Assembly: GCA_040876925.1 (NCBI GenBank)
Contig: JBBDOS010000005.1
Span: 40,815-104,814, forward strand
DNA from: Candidatus Saccharimonadales bacterium
GTDB lineage: Bacteria > Patescibacteriota > Saccharimonadia > QS-5-54-17
Reading direction: 5' to 3'
DNA: 64,000 nucleotides
Below the pieces are notes generated by a model. It saw only the letters and a list, made by a program, of their open reading frames with translations. It did not search any database and had not been told where the DNA came from. Each line of letters opens with the position of its first letter. Position 1 is the stretch's first letter. Position numbers and translations under genes: made by a program. This document shows positions 16,195 through 46,437 of this stretch, piece after piece.

Positions 16195-16271
16195 TGGCAC
16201 CCCGGGCAGGATTCGAACCTGCGACCTGCGGATTAGAAGACCGCTGCTCTATCCAACTGAGCTACCGGGGC
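16195..16271 (-). tRNA. tRNA-Arg (anticodon UCU)
   Basis: Reverse complement GCCCCGGTAGCTCAGTTGGATAGAGCAGCGGTCTTCTAATCCGCAGGTCGCAGGTTCGAATCCTGCCCGGGGTGCCA. Strongly resembles argU-type tRNA. Confidence 0.82.
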
Positions 16272-17513: not shown

Positions 17514-17975
17514 ATGGCGGATGAAATACAACTACGAGGTGGATCAGAAGCAGAGAATGACTCCTTCACTGGCGCCCAAAGAGAAGTTACTGTCGATACT
17601 ACTAATAAGACTCTTAGAGTACATGATGGTACAACAGCCGGAGGATCTAAATTAGCTACTCAAGACTATGTTGGCGATAATACCGCCTCTTTGACAGTTG
17701 AGAACGAATCGGGTACCAGCTACACAGTGGTGGCTGCCGATTCGGGAAAAGTGAAGCGGTTTACAGACGCTTCACAAGTAACAGTGACGCTACCAGATGG
17801 ACTGGCGGTCGGCACAATTGTGCATTTACTGTCGGCAGGTGCTGGAGGATTATCTATTGAGTCAAATGCTTCTTCGACAGTAGATCCGAATGATCCGGGT
17901 ACGGTAGATGAGGCAGGTGAGGCATCAGCGTTAGTAGTAGCTACTGACACCTGGAACGTACAAGGAACAGCATGA
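17514..17975 (+). CDS. Phage tail-fibre N-terminal-domain protein. The GC content rises along the gene.
   Basis: N-terminus MADEIQLRGGSEAENDSFTGAQREVTVDTTNKTLRVHDGTTAGG matches the widespread conserved N-terminal domain of phage tail fibre / receptor-binding proteins (IQxRRG...GE...DT..L+xxDG pattern). The stop overlaps the next gene's start (ATGA). Confidence 0.6.
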   Translation: MADEIQLRGGSEAENDSFTGAQREVTVDTTNKTLRVHDGTTAGGSKLATQDYVGDNTASLTVENESGTSYTVVAADSGKVKRFTDASQVTVTLPDGLAVGTIVHLLSAGAGGLSIESNASSTVDPNDPGTVDEAGEASALVVATDTWNVQGTA

Positions 17976-19201
17976 GTGTTGCGCTTCTTCGCCGTCGTGG
18001 AGTGTTGGCTGCTGGCGGGGGTGGGGGTGCACAGTTCGCTGTCGGCAGCTTTACGGCAGACACATCTACCGGGACGCAGCAGTTCGCTCACGGTCTTGGG
18101 ACGACTCCGAAGGCGATCTTCTTTTTCGGTTCGGGGTCTGCTGCGGTGTCGGGGACGTGGGATGCGCACGTTCATCAGGTAGTCGGGTTTAGTGATGGCA
18201 CGACTTCTTATGCAGTTTCTGGTGCGTCGGAGGACGCGGTAACGACGTCGAATACAGAGCAGCGTATTGCGGCGAAGTGCATCACGATTATTAGTGATGG
18301 CGAGGTGGTGATCGGTGAGGCGGATTTGGATTCGTGGGATGACACGAACATCACGGTGGATTGGACGGACGCGCCGGTCACATCTGACGAAATTATGTTT
18401 TGGGTTGTCGGTGGGGAGGGTGTTGAGGCGAAAGTTATGAACTGGCAATCACCTACTTCCACAGGGAATAAGGTGATTGACACAGTTGGTTTTCAACCTG
18501 ATTTGGTGCTACACGCCACGGTCTACGCGGCGTCGTCAATCCCGGACTCTTCTGGGTATATGGCTACAGGGTTTGGTGCGATGGATGGTGCTGGTGGACA
18601 GTGGACGAACGCTGTTGCGGCACAGGCTAGTCAGTCCACGAGCAACACGGGCCGATATCAGCGCACCGATAAGTGCATCTCAATTTTACAGGCTAATGGC
18701 ACTAGCCTTCCGGTAAATGAGGAGGCCGAGTTTGTGTCGATGAATTCGGGCGGTTTCACGGTCGATTTTACGACTGCGAGCGCGGGCGAGTGGAACTACA
18801 TCTCTTTGTGTATCAAGGGTGTCAACGCCAAAGTGCTGTCAGTCTCCGAAAGCGGCTCAGACACCCAAACCATCGACACTCTCACCTTTGAGCCATCCGC
18901 GCTTCTGACAGCCAATACTAGGCAAGCGGGGAATAGCGGACTTGTTGCTACGGATGCGTTGTTCGGAATAGGAGCAGCCACCGGAGATGCCCAACGCGCT
19001 ACTGCGCAAAGCGACCGCAATGGGCAGGCAACAACCGACGCGGAGTCGCTGTGGAAAAACAACCGGCACATTATCATGCCCGAATATGGGTCAATCAAGG
19101 CGGAAGCATCACTCACGTCGTTCAACGCAGACGGATGGACCGAAGATTGGGCGACCGACCCTGAAACAAATGTGCGTTACTACATCGCTTTAGGAGCCTA
19201 A
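17972..19201 (+). CDS. Large Gly/Ala/Thr/Ser-rich hypothetical protein, probable tail-fibre/receptor-binding partner, on a GC-rich island
   Basis: 409 aa at about 55-58% GC in an otherwise AT-rich locus. Translationally coupled to the upstream tail-fibre-domain gene. Followed immediately by GC-rich hairpins. Confidence 0.55.
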   Translation: MSVALLRRRGVLAAGGGGGAQFAVGSFTADTSTGTQQFAHGLGTTPKAIFFFGSGSAAVSGTWDAHVHQVVGFSDGTTSYAVSGASEDAVTTSNTEQRIAAKCITIISDGEVVIGEADLDSWDDTNITVDWTDAPVTSDEIMFWVVGGEGVEAKVMNWQSPTSTGNKVIDTVGFQPDLVLHATVYAASSIPDSSGYMATGFGAMDGAGGQWTNAVAAQASQSTSNTGRYQRTDKCISILQANGTSLPVNEEAEFVSMNSGGFTVDFTTASAGEWNYISLCIKGVNAKVLSVSESGSDTQTIDTLTFEPSALLTANTRQAGNSGLVATDALFGIGAATGDAQRATAQSDRNGQATTDAESLWKNNRHIIMPEYGSIKAEASLTSFNADGWTEDWATDPETNVRYYIALGA

Positions 19202-19417: not shown

Positions 19418-19494
19418 TGGAGGGCCTGGTGGGAGTCGAACCCACGACACGCGGCTTAAAAGGCCGCTGCTCTAACCAACTGAGCTACAGGCCC
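19418..19494 (-). tRNA. tRNA-Lys (anticodon UUU). Near-duplicate of the tRNA-Lys(CUU) at 13131-13207.
   Basis: Reverse complement GGGCCTGTAGCTCAGTTGGTTAGAGCAGCGGCCTTTTAAGCCGCGTGTCGTGGGTTCGACTCCCACCAGGCCCTCCA. Confidence 0.85.
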
Positions 19495-36604: not shown

Positions 36605-37513
36605 TTAGCCTAAATTGATAACTGCACCCTTAGCTTGAGATTTAGCTGATATATCCTTACTCAACGGTTTTTGCTTACCGACTTTAGAGGTTTTAATAAA
36701 ATGCTCCAAACTGACTACTAAATCTCTGTTGATATCTAAGTTATTGATATTTTGTAGTAGGTAGAATAGTGCATCTCTAGCCGTCTCAACATCTAGGCTG
36801 ACGAATTTAGACCTATTGATAGTAATTTTATTTAAATCTATACCAACTACATTATCAATAATACTCTTAAGCTCTAGTTCTTTTTGATCACGGATATGAT
36901 CGTTGTTAATCAGCTCCTGATGAAGTCTTTCTTTCAGCTGGAGGTCTTTGGCTAGCTTGTCTCTGATATGGTTCCTGGGCGTATCAAGAGTCTTGTTAGT
37001 ACTATCCTCTCGCCAGTTTAAGTTGTTGTCCTTAGCGTATTTAACTAATTCCCTCTTAAATATATCAAGTAGTGGGCGTTTAATCTCATCGGTTGCTCTT
37101 AAAGGCGCTAGTCCATGCCAGCCGCTACCTCTTTGCCTATTAAGCTCCATAGTCTCTATGCGATCATCTAGATGATGGGCCGTTAAGATAGCTAAAGCGC
37201 CATATTCTGATTTAATATCCCGCAAGAAACGATAGCGGTACTCACGAGCTAAGGCCTCACTGGCGTCTTTGCCTAGATTAGCTGATTCGGCTACAAACCC
37301 TAACCCATATTTACCGGCTAGGTTATGTACCAACTCCATATCAAGATCTGAGTCTGGTCTAATACCATGGTTAAAATGGGCTATGATCAGTTCATAATCA
37401 TCGTGATTACTTAATATATCTAGCAAGCTAGTAGAGTCTACACCGCCAGATACCGCCACGATATATTTACCTGGCTTAGGGAATATTACTTTTTTTATCA
37501 ACTCTTCACGCAT
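36605..37513 (-). CDS. tilS: tRNA(Ile)-lysidine synthetase
   Basis: PP-loop SGGVDS. Position upstream of ftsH as in the common tilS-(hpt)-ftsH arrangement. Confidence 0.8.
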   Translation of the reverse strand: MREELIKKVIFPKPGKYIVAVSGGVDSTSLLDILSNHDDYELIIAHFNHGIRPDSDLDMELVHNLAGKYGLGFVAESANLGKDASEALAREYRYRFLRDIKSEYGALAILTAHHLDDRIETMELNRQRGSGWHGLAPLRATDEIKRPLLDIFKRELVKYAKDNNLNWREDSTNKTLDTPRNHIRDKLAKDLQLKERLHQELINNDHIRDQKELELKSIIDNVVGIDLNKITINRSKFVSLDVETARDALFYLLQNINNLDINRDLVVSLEHFIKTSKVGKQKPLSKDISAKSQAKGAVINLG

Positions 37514-38185: not shown

Positions 38186-38262
38186 TGGTACCAGGGGTGG
38201 GATTTGAACCCACGACCTCAGGCTTATGAGTCCTGTGCTCTAACCAACTGAGCTACCCTGGC
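38186..38262 (-). tRNA. tRNA with CAU anticodon, most likely elongator tRNA-Met
   Basis: Reverse complement GCCAGGGTAGCTCAGTTGGTTAGAGCACAGGACTCATAAGCCTGAGGTCGTGGGTTCAAATCCCACCCCTGGTACCA. Resembles metT-type more than ileX-type. Confidence 0.7.
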
Positions 38263-38739: not shown

Positions 38740-38814
38740 CGCGGGGTAGAGCAGTGGCAGCTCGTCGGGCTCATAACCCGGAGGTCGCAGGTTCGAATCC
38801 TGCCCCCGCTACCA
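38740..38814 (+). tRNA. Probable initiator tRNA-fMet (CAU)
   Basis: CGCGGGGTAGAGCAGTGGCAGCTCGTCGGGCTCATAACCCGGAGGTCGCAGGTTCGAATCCTGCCCCCGCTACCA. Three consecutive G-C pairs closing the anticodon stem (GGG/CCC) and an unpaired 1:72 (C:U). Confidence 0.75.
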
Positions 38815-38861
38815 AGTTGAACATTTATCACCTAAGACCCGGTTCCTAGACTGGGCTTTTT
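38809..38861 (+). repeat. Copy 1 of an about 50-bp repeat: tRNA-fMet 3' end plus TTATCACCTAAGACCCGGTTCCTAGACTGGGCTTTTT
   Basis: Direct repeat of 40564-40635 (about 80% identity). Contains a degenerate hairpin and a T-run. Confidence 0.6.
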
Positions 38862-38989
38862 GTTTCTCTAGGGTATATTAAACGCAACTGTTCTCTATGC
38901 GAGGATTGGATGCGGAATACTATGGCCGGGTTCCTTGACCGTACTTATCGCTCTATCTGTTAGTAGCTAATGCGTAGTAGAATTAGTAT

Positions 38990-39970
38990 ATGGTAGTCCA
39001 TGAAGCAGAAAATAAAATCCTTAAATATGCAGGCGCGTTTCTGGGCGGGTATAAGGAAGCGGTTAACAAACATTTCGATCAAGAACGATGGGAAGTTGCA
39101 AAACTAGGAAGGCAGAAGGACTACTTCCCATTATTCGACAAAGAGATTGGTGAAACGGTTGCATTGGCTTCTAAATATACTGATTATGATTTTTTCCTAT
39201 TTTTTCTGGATGAGGAGAATGCTACTTGGAGAATAATTGATTCCGATAATGAAGAGGAATTCACAGCAGACTGGACTATGCACACACCACAAGATGAAAA
39301 GCGTCGTCGTATGCACGAATACCTACAAGTGAAACCTGAAGAGATACTAATGGAGGTAAATGTCCCAGCAAGAGGTTTCTTGAATAATGTTGACTACCAA
39401 ATAGAAAAGCAAGGACGTTCACATGGCTATGATCGTGGCAATCAGCATGGCGCCAAAGCGAGAAAAGAAATCCCAGTTCTTAACTCGAAGCTAGCGAGCG
39501 ACATCGAACTCCAAACCATATCGAAGAAATTCGAAGAATTAAAGTCAGGCAGTGATAAACCACATCAAAGAGGGACAGGATTTGAGGAACTATGGAGACG
39601 AACTTTAAGTTTTTATGGTTGGAAACCGAAGAAAATTCAAATTCATGGCGAAGAGAACGACTTCACAGCAATTTATCAAGGTAATCATATTTTGGGTGAA
39701 GTAAGATGGCACAAAACTGCTATGCAGGCTAATAAAATGAGAGACTTTCTTGGTAAGTTAGACCCAAGACCACAAACAATAGGATTCTTTATTTCACAGT
39801 CTGGGTTCACCCAAGGAGCTATAAGCGTTGCTAGAAGATCCATAAACACTAAGACTGTGGTAATGTTTGGTCCTGACGAGATTAGTCAAGTTTTGACTGG
39901 GCGTAAAGACCCAGGAGAATTGTTTAATAATTTGCTGCGCGATATTTACGATAAAGTACTCGAGGAATAG
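38990..39970 (+). CDS. Hypothetical protein with C-terminal restriction-endonuclease-like (Mrr-cat / PD-(D/E)xK-like) domain and an unknown N-terminal domain
   Basis: C-terminal GTGFEELWRRTLSFYGW...GEENDFTAIYQGNHILGEVRWHK pattern (GxxFE ... D ... E/Q.K) resembling the Mrr_cat nuclease core. 326 aa. Confidence 0.35.
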   Translation: MVVHEAENKILKYAGAFLGGYKEAVNKHFDQERWEVAKLGRQKDYFPLFDKEIGETVALASKYTDYDFFLFFLDEENATWRIIDSDNEEEFTADWTMHTPQDEKRRRMHEYLQVKPEEILMEVNVPARGFLNNVDYQIEKQGRSHGYDRGNQHGAKARKEIPVLNSKLASDIELQTISKKFEELKSGSDKPHQRGTGFEELWRRTLSFYGWKPKKIQIHGEENDFTAIYQGNHILGEVRWHKTAMQANKMRDFLGKLDPRPQTIGFFISQSGFTQGAISVARRSINTKTVVMFGPDEISQVLTGRKDPGELFNNLLRDIYDKVLEE

Positions 39971-40081
39971 ATTCTTACAAGACTATTTTCCGATCTTGAA
40001 TCCTAAACTGGGCTTGAATTCCTTTAATTAAATCCGACATTTTTTATACCGACAGGTACGCAGTATGAATTTATTATAAGG

Positions 40082-40552
40082 TCAGTACTGAGCCCTTAGC
40101 CAAATAAAAAGTCCCCACCATAGAATTGGGAAAGTGAGCAATATAGTGACATCGGTCAATGTGTAGATGCCGCCAGTCGGTCTATTGCTCCGCGTTACTT
40201 TTTTACCAGTTTTTATTTCCCATATTAGATCTGGTATGCGATTTAACATTAACAGTACTACGCCAGAAAGCACCCATAGATTGGTATATTGGTAGAGAAG
40301 GTAAAAGACCCCAACACTTACTGCAATGAATACTACCGTGGTGGCATTGTCTGCTTTATTATCTTTAGCTATTTCTTTCTTGATAAATTCGTGTGTATTT
40401 TTATCTTGTTTCATTTCTTCAAGCCTTACATCTCGAAAGAAACCTCTAACCACCATGCCAACAAGATTAGTAGCTAAATACATAGCAACGAGTAACGCTA
40501 GTGACGCTAGTACTATTGACAATACAATCGACATATTTGAATTATACATCAA
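40082..40552 (-). CDS. Hypothetical membrane protein (156 aa, 4 TM)
   Basis: ORF track; hydrophobic helices. Confidence 0.4.
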   Translation of the reverse strand: MMYNSNMSIVLSIVLASLALLVAMYLATNLVGMVVRGFFRDVRLEEMKQDKNTHEFIKKEIAKDNKADNATTVVFIAVSVGVFYLLYQYTNLWVLSGVVLLMLNRIPDLIWEIKTGKKVTRSNRPTGGIYTLTDVTILLTFPILWWGLFIWLRAQY

Positions 40553-40563
40553 TAAATCATTTA

Positions 40564-40635
40564 TGTTTCGGACCTGTCTGCTCTACCAAGCTGGACACTT
40601 ATCACCTAAGACCCGGTTCTTAGACCGGGTCTTTT
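40564..40635 (+). repeat. Copy 2 of the repeat: degenerate tRNA-fMet 3'-end remnant plus TTATCACCTAAGACCCGGTTCTTAGACCGGGTCTTTTT. Contains a perfect 8-bp stem hairpin (40608-40631) followed by a T-run, so it is terminator-like.
   Basis: gtttcggacctgtctgctctaccaagctggaca aligns with the tRNA 3' end ggttcgaatcctgcccccgctaccaagttgaaca. Downstream hairpin AGACCCGG/CCGGGTCT. Confidence 0.6.
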
Positions 40636-40762
40636 TCATGCAAGACCATCTCTTTTATAAAAGTTACAGATACAGGTGTCCGTTTGCTCTGTACGGACTG
40701 GATGTAAAACTTGCCGACCGGATTCCTAAACCGTAGCTAAACTGTTAAAGTTCTAGTAAGTT

Positions 40763-41365
40763 ATGAAATATAAATACGGTTCAAATTTTCAACAGTTAAT
40801 TAGCTCACCAGAAAAATTACAGAATCTTTTAGTAAACTGTTCTTTTTCCGGATCATTTAAGGCATGGGAGCAACGCAAGGCTTTTATAGCTAATTCCATT
40901 CATAAAGATGGTACTTTTTTAGATATCGGCTGTGGCAATGGCTTTTTACTGTGTTGTCTGCAAGAATGGTCAGAATTCCAGATAACTCCTTATGGGATTG
41001 ATATAAACGAAAAATTCATAGAGGAAGCGAAAGAACTTTTTCCGAGTCGAAAAGACAATTTCGCAGCTCTAGATGCTAAAGACATCAAAGACATTTCAGC
41101 CTATCTACCGAAGCAGTACGATTTCATTTTTTTCAGTAGCAACTGGATAAACATAAAGCCGGATTATCATAATAAAAAGCAGTTAGAGAATTTACTTAAC
41201 TATTTAGAACCAGGTGGCCGGTTTATTGTCGGCTTTTATGCCCAAGATAAAGATGTCAATCTAGAAACACTAAAAGAATTCAAATCACTCGGCATAAATT
41301 TTGATAAAACCCTGGAAAACGCTAAAGACACGAACCTAGTAGCATGGATAAATAAAACACCATAA
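40763..41365 (+). CDS. Class I SAM-dependent methyltransferase
   Basis: Motif I FLDIGCGNGFLL. Acidic residue about 20 aa downstream (GIDIN). No DPPY/NPPF DNA-amino-MTase motif seen. Confidence 0.7.
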   Translation: MKYKYGSNFQQLISSPEKLQNLLVNCSFSGSFKAWEQRKAFIANSIHKDGTFLDIGCGNGFLLCCLQEWSEFQITPYGIDINEKFIEEAKELFPSRKDNFAALDAKDIKDISAYLPKQYDFIFFSSNWINIKPDYHNKKQLENLLNYLEPGGRFIVGFYAQDKDVNLETLKEFKSLGINFDKTLENAKDTNLVAWINKTP

Positions 41366-41384
41366 TATCTTCATGAGGGTAAAA

Positions 41385-41421
41385 GCGGTCAAAGTTCGAA
41401 CCCTGCCCCCGCTACCAAGTT
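41385..41421 (+). repeat. Partial direct copy of the tRNA-fMet 3' half (att-like remnant)
   Basis: ggtcaaagttcgaaccctgcccccgctaccaagtt versus tRNA ggtcgcaggttcgaatcctgcccccgctaccaagtt. The last 28 nt match at 27/28, including 4 nt beyond the tRNA 3' end. Confidence 0.7.
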
Positions 41422-41592
41422 ATAAGCTAATTATTAAAAACCCTGCTATAAAAGCTGGGTTTTTTATGTTTTTGGTAAGATTATTTATAATCATCTACCC
41501 CTCTAATCTCACCTCATTAACTTAACAGAGGTATTAAGATGATATGTTAAAATATATACATAAGCTATTAATAATTAATAGGAGGGATAAAA

Positions 41593-42165
41593 ATGATATC
41601 ACGAATTATTGAAGCAACCACGGACGCTGTAGCAACAGCAGTTAAGGGTATTGATAATATCCTAGACGCCGTAACTGGTACCGTTAAGGACCAGGTAGTA
41701 AATGTATTACAAGGTGCAGGAGAGATAGCAGGAACTGGCGTTGAAGCAATTGCGTCTATTGCTAGTGGAGCAGTTAAGGGCACTGGACAAGTTGGTGCCT
41801 CTATAACTGATACTGCAGCTGGCACTATGAGCGGTATCGTAAAGGGCGCAAGCCAAGTAAGCAGTGACGTTATAGTAGCTATTAAGGGTGGTGCTGAAGG
41901 AATCGTAAAAGCTACTGCAGAGACTGGCGGCGACATAGGCGCAGCAGCTGTAGCAGCTGTTGAAGGCGCCATTAAGTCTGCTGGTGATATTGGTGCAGAT
42001 ACAGCAGAAGCAGCCAAGGCTGCCGTAGGTGGCGCTTTAGATGCTGCTACTAGCGTTGGTGGCAGCGCAGTTGGTACAGTTCGCGATGCTCTACTTTCAG
42101 CTGCAGCACTCCCCCGTGATGTAGTAGAATCTGCAATTCAGGGCAGTGAAAAAGATAGCGAATAA
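41593..42165 (+). CDS. Ala/Gly/Val/Lys-rich repeat protein (about 11-residue periodicity, predicted amphipathic helices; LEA / DUF948 / synuclein-like), strong ribosome-binding site
   Basis: TAGGAGGG 6 nt upstream of the ATG. Recurrent A(V/I)KGxxxxxxx units (AVKGIDNILDA, AVKGTGQVGAS, IVKGASQVSSD, AIKGGAEGIVK, AIKSAGDIGAD). Confidence 0.55.
   Translation: MISRIIEATTDAVATAVKGIDNILDAVTGTVKDQVVNVLQGAGEIAGTGVEAIASIASGAVKGTGQVGASITDTAAGTMSGIVKGASQVSSDVIVAIKGGAEGIVKATAETGGDIGAAAVAAVEGAIKSAGDIGADTAEAAKAAVGGALDAATSVGGSAVGTVRDALLSAAALPRDVVESAIQGSEKDSE

Positions 42166-46361: not shown

Positions 46362-46437
<76 letters not shown>

Follow-up and report, generated by a model that had tools for sequence, protein, structure and literature searches.

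Does the DNA downstream of the initiator tRNA gene in a Saccharibacteria genome record repeated arrivals of mobile DNA at that gene, and do the genes found there work together as a defence system? Both questions are raised by a 64,000-nucleotide (nt) stretch of contig JBBDOS010000005.1 from Candidatus Saccharimonadales bacterium, which was analysed over its full length and is referred to here as the window. In it, an intact initiator tRNA gene (tRNA-fMet) is followed by an islet that carries genes for a 326-amino-acid (aa) nuclease-like protein, a small membrane protein and a methyltransferase, and that is bounded at its far end by a truncated copy of the tRNA 3′ end. An original prediction had proposed both an insertion anchored at the tRNA and a compact defence module. 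On balance, we favor the view that the region is the decayed remnant of an integrase-mediated tandem insertion into the initiator tRNA gene. The evidence for this lies chiefly in a repeat that is confined to the locus and whose displaced copies are truncated at the same place in the tRNA.

Truncated copies of the initiator tRNA gene

The anchoring gene, the three repeat units and a weaker recurring motif are located in the window as follows.

38740-38814, + strand: intact initiator tRNA-Met(CAT) (ARAGORN; Rfam tRNA, 64.6 bits), the anchor on the attL side of the islet
38791-38866, + strand: unit A, comprising the final ~24 nt of the tRNA and a tail of ~50 nt with a terminator hairpin (38838-38855) and T-run
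40566-40640, + strand: unit B, a degenerate tRNA 3′ end (24/31, one gap) plus a near-identical tail and hairpin (nhmmer E 2.4e-22)
41385-41466, + strand: unit C, which joins a truncated tRNA 3′ end to a hairpin and T-run of its own (~41440-41466; nhmmer E 4.7e-6 over the unit), the attR-like distal border
38928-38941, + strand: weak additional occurrence, in the 326-aa gene's leader, of the hairpin-core motif GG(A)TTCYTWRACYG, with similar copies at 40000-40013 and 40720-40733

Read directly from its sequence, the anchor has the hallmarks of an initiator, namely a C.U mismatch at 1:72 and GGG:CCC pairs closing the anticodon stem. Its 3′ end, GTTCGAATCCTGCCCCCGCTACCA, recurs once in the window, at 41394-41417 in unit C, with 23/24 positions identical and no occurrence expected in shuffles; the match extends to 27/28 between 41394-41421 and 38791-38818 (blastn 96.4% over 28 nt), with weaker gapped similarity back to ~41385. 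ARAGORN, Rfam, blastn and nhmmer thus bear out the predicted pairing of an intact tRNA-fMet with a partial 3′ copy 2.6 kb further on. The third, degenerate copy with a shared tail that had also been proposed is equally real: a gapped alignment of 38791-38866 with 40566-40640 scores 78 against a null of 16.9 ± 2.3, the identity between 38799-38861 and 40573-40635 is 83%, and the trailer 21-mer TTATCACCTAAGACCCGGTTC occurs exactly twice in the window, with no occurrence expected in shuffles. The tails of A and B both fold as hairpin-plus-T-run terminators, and a T-to-C difference in B converts a G.U pair of the stem of A into a G-C pair.

One way to account for such repeats is as instances of a general terminator motif. 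This was rejected within the window, where only loose resemblances of 10-14 nt were found elsewhere. An nhmmer profile built from units A and B recovers A, B and C alone on both strands of the 64 kb, and the repeat is therefore real and locus-bound rather than a general terminator motif within the available sequence. As a separate observation on the same gene, 24 nt of the tRNA-fMet T-arm are identical to the T-arm of tRNA-Arg(tct) at 16204-16227.

The geometry of the copies is the most informative feature of the locus. Units B and C both begin in the T-arm, at tRNA position ~45-54, and no trace of a tRNA 5′ half is found upstream of either one. Instead, coding regions abut both: ~15-30 nt separate B from the start of the membrane-protein gene, and 20 nt lie between the end of the methyltransferase gene and C. 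Truncation at the same point of the T-arm is expected from repeated recombination at a single att core and not from random duplication. The attL/attR-like reading of the tRNA 3′-end repeats is supported by copies that start in the T-arm, and the proposal of two tandem insertions by their shared point of truncation together with the restriction of the repeat to this part of the window.

The same geometry bears on the simplest explanation without mobile DNA, according to which B and C are relics of tandem tRNA-fMet duplicates whose 5′ halves have decayed, the genes between them being ancestral or the product of unrelated rearrangements. Tandem arrangements of tRNA-fMet genes do exist, as in metZWV of E. 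coli, and duplication of a gene together with its terminator would leave A and B sharing both tRNA end and trailer, as they do. The native composition of the intervening genes and the general rearrangement of the locus relative to its counterpart in another genome, described below, also fit this alternative. We nevertheless consider it quite unlikely. It predicts neither the coding regions found where 5′ halves should have left a trace nor two copies cut at one T-arm position, it leaves the 1.7 kb and 0.75 kb of genes between the copies unexplained, and reduced patescibacterial genomes generally keep single tRNA copies.

According to the insertion model that we favor, one, and more likely two, mobile elements would have inserted successively at the 3′ end of the single initiator tRNA gene by Campbell-type site-specific recombination. 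Each incoming circle would have carried an attP containing the last ~28-37 nt of tRNA-fMet, which in the two tRNA-proximal units would additionally have brought the terminator tail. Integration would then have rebuilt a working tRNA, and the truncated 3′ copy would have ended up beyond the cargo. Later deletion of the recombinase genes and of most of the element DNA would have left three cargo genes that are independent of one another and that probably each act alone.

A precedent for mobile DNA that carries this segment comes from the viral contigs of IMG/VR, four of which (L111, L118, L097 and L107) were found by inspection to contain 28-50 nt from the 3′ end of a tRNA-fMet, as truncated copies that share the 3′ sequence seen here. 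In L107, the copy lies beside a tyrosine integrase (PF00589, 8e-20). Other short BLAST matches in viral contigs were discarded as candidate truncated copies, being complete phage tRNAs with divergent 5′ halves. The tail motif had no match in IMG/VR, and blastn of the tails and leaders against all fetched loci returned none.

The likeness between A and B may continue weakly for ~80 nt more, into the leaders of the 326-aa and methyltransferase genes. This extension is marginal, with a leader-to-leader score of 22 against a null of 15.4 ± 2.3 that was reached by 5/300 shuffles, and the count of the hairpin-core motif is biased because its pattern was derived from the same sites that it counts. 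Going by sequence similarity, the shared leaders and the recurrence of this motif in the intergenic regions of the islet could represent the homologous attP arms of two related elements.

Composition, a related locus and the origin of the segments

Several observations weigh against an integrase-mediated origin. The first is the lack of any integrase, excisionase or pseudogene fragment in the islet, where intergenic gaps of 111-210 nt leave no room for one. Nor do the called genes within 6 kb on either side contain a Pfam integrase domain, so that the predicted absence of a recombinase holds, the islet being otherwise made up of its three open reading frames (ORFs). Second, the GC content, GC content at third codon positions (GC3) and codon usage of the three cargo genes are ordinary (z within ±1.7 relative to the 62 genes of the window). 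Third, the tRNA part of unit B is more diverged (7/31) than its tail (3/48), a pattern that neutral decay alone does not explain. Taken together, the missing recombinase and the host-like composition of the cargo imply either an old, ameliorated and immobile scar or DNA that arrived from closely related donors.

Further points against it come from the comparison with relatives, of which only one was informative. A genome-collection scan with the flanking HD-domain protein yielded two loci in all, the informative one being L003, on JBJHCT010000002.1 of a Candidatus Saccharibacteria metagenome-assembled genome (MAG) whose HD protein, helicase and FtsH are 73%, 78% and 86% identical to those of the window. 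Among 80 metagenomic loci found with the flanking DEAD-box helicase, all at ≤59% identity, none had a tRNA-fMet placed, with respect to the helicase, as it is in the window, and the five matches to the neighbouring 108-aa gene lay on L003 itself or on contigs that were non-syntenic (L120) or too short (L122). When the proteins of the flanking and cargo genes were looked up by exact match, the results were confined to the source MAG, one sister MAG and Logan contigs that carry the same islet.

At the L003 locus, the gene order runs from the 108-aa gene through tRNA-fMet and a terminator to a Crp-like regulator and then the helicase; all three cargo genes are missing. The absence of the cargo, which the original prediction had suggested looking for, fits insertion in the lineage of the window. 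The clean empty site that would go with it was not found, however: L003 also lacks the genes for the 190-aa protein, the 85-aa protein and the S9 peptidase that follow the islet in the window, it contains an extra regulator, and loss of the cargo in L003 is possible as an alternative to its gain in the window. Moreover, when the native trailer of the L003 tRNA is aligned with each tail, A and B give z 4.0 and 5.7, and C gives z 0.9. A better fit to A and B is the reverse of what the simplest tandem-integration model implies, in which the distal copy keeps the ancestral flank. The elements may have come from close relatives, carrying the trailer typical of the lineage.

The same facts can be read in favor of acquisition without a recombinase. 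In this alternative, DNA of related Saccharibacteria taken up by competence would have circularised and entered by a RecA-dependent single crossover at the ~80 nt formed by the tRNA 3′ end and its native trailer, and repetition of the process would have produced a cassette-like array of the form unit-gene(s)-unit-gene-unit in which an integrase was never involved. The missing recombinase, a cargo composition matching that of the host, as expected from donors of the same lineage, and the resemblance of tails A and B to the L003 trailer all suit this scenario, as does the possible weak A/B similarity into the leaders (those same 5/300 shuffles), which suggests that whole segments of tRNA end, trailer, leader and gene may have moved. 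The truncation points suit it poorly. A segment donated by a relative would bring a full tRNA rather than a copy truncated in the T-arm, and without a site-specific core it is difficult to see how the same truncation point could arise twice independently; in addition, an 80-nt patch of homology is short for RecA, and no donor locus was found with tRNA-fMet followed by any of the cargo genes. We therefore regard this route as unlikely. The related notion that naturally competent Saccharibacteria build a cassette array without an integrase, recombining at the tRNA-end-plus-trailer unit, seems to us less likely than the nuclease-family novelty considered below.

The orthologous tRNA-fMet of L003 (11215-11967) has a history of its own. 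A group I intron of ~678 nt (Rfam RF00028, 59.6 bits, threshold 50) splits it in the anticodon loop, at position 33/34, and encodes a 149-aa PDDEXK_5 homing endonuclease (PF11645, 6.6e-50) of the I-Ssp6803I type; ARAGORN missed the split gene, and the tRNA-fMet of the window has no intron. The arrangement is that of the Synechocystis tRNA-fMet intron encoding I-Ssp6803I, with 655 nt and 150 aa (PMC1995217). A 2026 survey of complete genomes recorded PF11645-bearing tRNA-fMet introns in Cyanobacteriota only (PMC13011429), and the L003 intron is a patescibacterial case that may reflect transfer across phyla. A connection of the truncated copies in the window with this intron or its homing site was considered and rejected, since the intron lies at 33/34 and B and C start in the T-arm.

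Several contigs of other assemblies break at or near the same gene. Contig L008 ends at 38769, L009 ends exactly at the CCA (38814) and L001 starts at 38788; these assemblies are independent and derive from the same organism (Logan SRR27977662; sister MAG GCA_040879745.1). The exact repeat stretches, at ~20-21 nt, are too short to break a graph with k=31. The breaks hint at assembly ambiguity, and strain heterogeneity at the site is possible.

As for the wider locus, the islet is preceded by FtsH, TilS, an HD-domain protein, a tRNA-Met (38186-38262, − strand), the 108-aa membrane protein and tRNA-fMet, and it is followed by a 190-aa Ala/Gly-rich protein, an 85-aa CBU_0592-family membrane protein, a DEAD-box helicase, an S9 peptidase, DivIC and a further tRNA-Met (46362-46437). 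The window thus has three tRNAs with a CAT anticodon within 8.3 kb (38186-38262, −; 38740-38814, +; 46362-46437, +), and they adjoin tilS (36605-37513); presumably they are the elongator Met tRNA, the initiator and the lysidine-modified Ile2 tRNA. The 190-aa gene directly downstream of the islet (41593-42165, + strand) combines high GC (0.49) with low GC3, and its product matches only Phasin_2 and phage tape-measure families of PHROGs, in each case weakly and probably through low complexity. Because this gene and the adjacent 85-aa gene are likewise missing from L003, the variable region reaches past the repeat-bounded islet.

The cargo genes and the question of a defence module

The three ORFs stand as described in the original prediction, and all have real homologue families.

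38990-39970, + strand: 326-aa protein with a conserved N-terminal domain whose fold is unknown (residues 1-190) and a Mrr/MspJI-like PD-(D/E)xK domain (residues ~191-326)
40082-40552, − strand: small membrane protein of 156 aa with ~4 transmembrane segments (185 cluster representatives at E ≤ 1e-3)
40763-41365, + strand: 200-aa class I S-adenosylmethionine (SAM)-dependent methyltransferase (Pfam Methyltransf_31, 6.7e-14)

Homologues of the 326-aa protein fall into 105 clusters with 35-52% identity over the full length; they are mostly metagenomic, with one from Streptomyces mirabilis. NCBI annotates the same gene as a 268-aa "restriction endonuclease" that starts at an internal Met. Conservation of the upstream 58 residues (Y13, Y21, P47, L48 and others) in 50 homologues indicates that the start of the 326-aa frame is the correct one. 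The nuclease fold proposed for its C-terminus is well founded. In an AlphaFold2 model built from the 50 homologues (pLDDT 92, pTM 0.77), the C-terminal domain has the order alpha-beta-beta-beta-alpha-beta, as in PD-(D/E)xK nucleases, and Foldseek matches it to MspJI (E 1.4e-4), AspBHI, EcoT38I, HindIII and RPB5/XisH-type Mrr-like folds. The Pfam model Mrr_cat (PF04471) scores just above threshold (22.2 bits against a cutoff of 21, residues 195-284), and plasmid-borne genes annotated as "restriction endonuclease" match the C-terminal domain alone by tblastn. A profile of the family found nothing among PDB sequences at E ≤ 1, the protein itself matched nothing in PADLOC-DB v2 at E ≤ 1, and searches of PHROGs and, by tblastn, of the phage collection were negative. 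Neither a Mrr_N winged helix nor an SRA-like domain, or any other reader of DNA or modified bases, was found in the N-terminal domain.

The invariant residues of the family are E199, D224 and E237-V-R239, as mapped by inspection of the alignment and predicted secondary structure rather than by superposition. The putative catalytic Lys of the canonical motif is thus an invariant Arg, and activity as a nuclease is not assured on this reading of the alignment, a point that also tells against our overall view of the islet. Homologues of the 326-aa protein do occur near genes that resemble PADLOC candidate-defence models, namely PDC-S06 (2e-188), an HNH PtuB-like gene, a PDC-M28C-like gene and a weak PycTM, and near a helicase resembling the helicase domains of type IIG and type I restriction enzymes. 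Guilt by association with these neighbours suggests a role in defence for the nuclease alone. The 326-aa protein is most likely a stand-alone Type IV-like, or otherwise sensor-coupled, DNA nuclease. Such a solitary protein would probably act as a defence or DNA-targeting enzyme on its own, with the new N-terminal domain sensing a signal or mediating dimerisation. A bolder idea, which we hold only tentatively, is that it founds a so far unrecognised family of defence nucleases, each encoded by a single gene, in soil, metagenomic and actinobacterial genomes, often within defence islands. Residues 1-190, a structurally novel domain with a 50-residue helix at its end, would then sense or dimerise and so control an E-x-R variant of the PD-(D/E)xK fold.

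To judge from its homologues, the membrane protein is a real conserved family. They align from query residue 7 onward, so that its true start is probably the ATG at 40534. At cut-off or significance, no Pfam, NCBIfam, PADLOC or PHROG family was assigned to it. The methyltransferase matches only the generic models Methyltransf_31/25/12/11 and contains motif I (LDIGCGNG); its NCBIfam matches, all far below cutoffs, are to small-molecule and RNA methyltransferases. In agreement with the original prediction, this generic class I sequence has no motif IV of the DNA amino-methyltransferase type, either as (D/N/S)PP(Y/F) or as PC, and it has no target-recognition domain. Lacking the (D/N/S)PP(Y/F) motif, it is probably not a DNA methyltransferase. 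Its family comprises 33 matches, several of them from Saccharibacteria; in other Saccharibacteria its neighbours are housekeeping or small-enzyme genes, among them genes for threonyl-tRNA synthetase (ThrRS), a beta-lactamase-like protein, NUDIX and MGMT, or for an acetyltransferase, a kinase and a hydrolase. In PADLOC, it matches mad2 only (8.6e-15), the match being confined to the SAM-binding domain (265-411 of the 492 profile positions), and further MADS components are absent.

These results bear directly on the proposal that the three genes are a functional unit, either a compact module for phage defence or abortive infection, or the decayed form of a restriction-modification (R-M) system, in which a nuclease effector works with a membrane partner and a protective methyltransferase. 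Its appeal is clear from the PD-(D/E)xK fold, the mad2 match, the tRNA-hotspot location and the frequent occurrence of nuclease homologues in defence-like neighbourhoods. Conserved linkage is where the proposal fails. In none of the four examined neighbourhoods of 326-aa homologues was there a related methyltransferase or membrane protein, and the neighbours there were mutually unrelated; linkage of the nuclease and methyltransferase genes is not conserved in other genomes; and the methyltransferase homologues sit in the unrelated surroundings just listed. The mad2 match reflects a generic SAM-binding domain in the absence of other MADS components, the methyltransferase has no DNA-methyltransferase motif, and PADLOC was empty at E ≤ 1 for the other two proteins and reported no system. 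Within the islet, the genes are spread over two separate repeat-bounded segments and both strands. On this sequence evidence, each of the three genes belongs to a family of its own with unrelated neighbours elsewhere, and the reading as a defence module is not supported. We consider such a module very improbable, the lack of conserved linkage having largely refuted it already.

Wider meaning and comparison with known systems

If our preferred interpretation is correct, the scar left by tandem insertion at tRNA-fMet means that classic att-site integration at tRNA genes shapes reduced genomes too. Saccharibacteria genomes measure only ~1 Mb, and to our knowledge the gain of accessory genes by them is little documented. 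The orthologous tRNA of the sister species hosts a different selfish element, the group I intron with its homing endonuclease. With two different elements at orthologous tRNAs, the single gene for the initiator tRNA looks like a site at which mobile DNA has landed repeatedly. Setting aside the three-gene module removes the false lead of a new defence system and leaves one candidate, a conserved family of Mrr-like nucleases whose N-terminal domain has no known fold.

A second region of interest lies elsewhere in the window, at 17514-19198 (+ strand), where two ORFs of 153 and 409 aa with strongly atypical composition adjoin tRNA-Lys(ttt) (19418-19494). The 409-aa ORF has a GC content of 0.553 (z +4.5) and a GC3 of 0.584 (z +5.0), and the 153-aa ORF has an N-terminus like that of Mtd_N and phage tail proteins (Pfam 7.8e-15; phrog_9648). 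A diversity-generating retroelement was considered as an explanation and rejected, as there was no template/variable repeat pair in 14.5-24.5 kb. The region looks like a foreign, phage-derived insertion beside a tRNA that is far more recent than the fMet islet.

Compared with known systems, the islet recalls Type II R-M in having a nuclease-fold gene and a SAM methyltransferase within 1 kb on a putative mobile segment. It differs from such systems in that the methyltransferase has neither motif IV nor a target-recognition domain, that the two genes are unlinked elsewhere, and that repeat unit B separates them and so assigns them to different insertion segments. The 326-aa protein is closer to the Type IV endonucleases Mrr, MspJI and AspBHI: it has two domains with the nuclease at the C-terminus, its gene is solitary with no cognate methyltransferase, and its homologues lie near candidate defence genes. 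It departs from them in the invariant Arg of E237-V-R239 at the position of the (D/E)xK lysine, and in having no match to a PDB sequence or a PADLOC model.

The closest likeness is to tRNA-targeted integrative elements and their remnants, and we therefore see the islet as a new case of a familiar type of structure, the remnant of integration at a tRNA, here carrying one uncharacterised nuclease family. It is unusual among these elements in containing neither an integrase nor an excisionase, nor a remnant of one, in its tiny size (~1.75 kb plus 0.8 kb), in its host-like composition, and in the resemblance of the relative's trailer to the two proximal tails and not to the distal one. Like them, it has an intact tRNA at one border and truncated tRNA 3′ repeats at the distal and internal borders, as in a tandem array; an element-supplied 3′ end and terminator would keep the tRNA functional; the cargo consists of accessory, possibly defence-related genes; and the same tRNA-fMet 3′ segment accompanies a tyrosine integrase in the viral contig L107.

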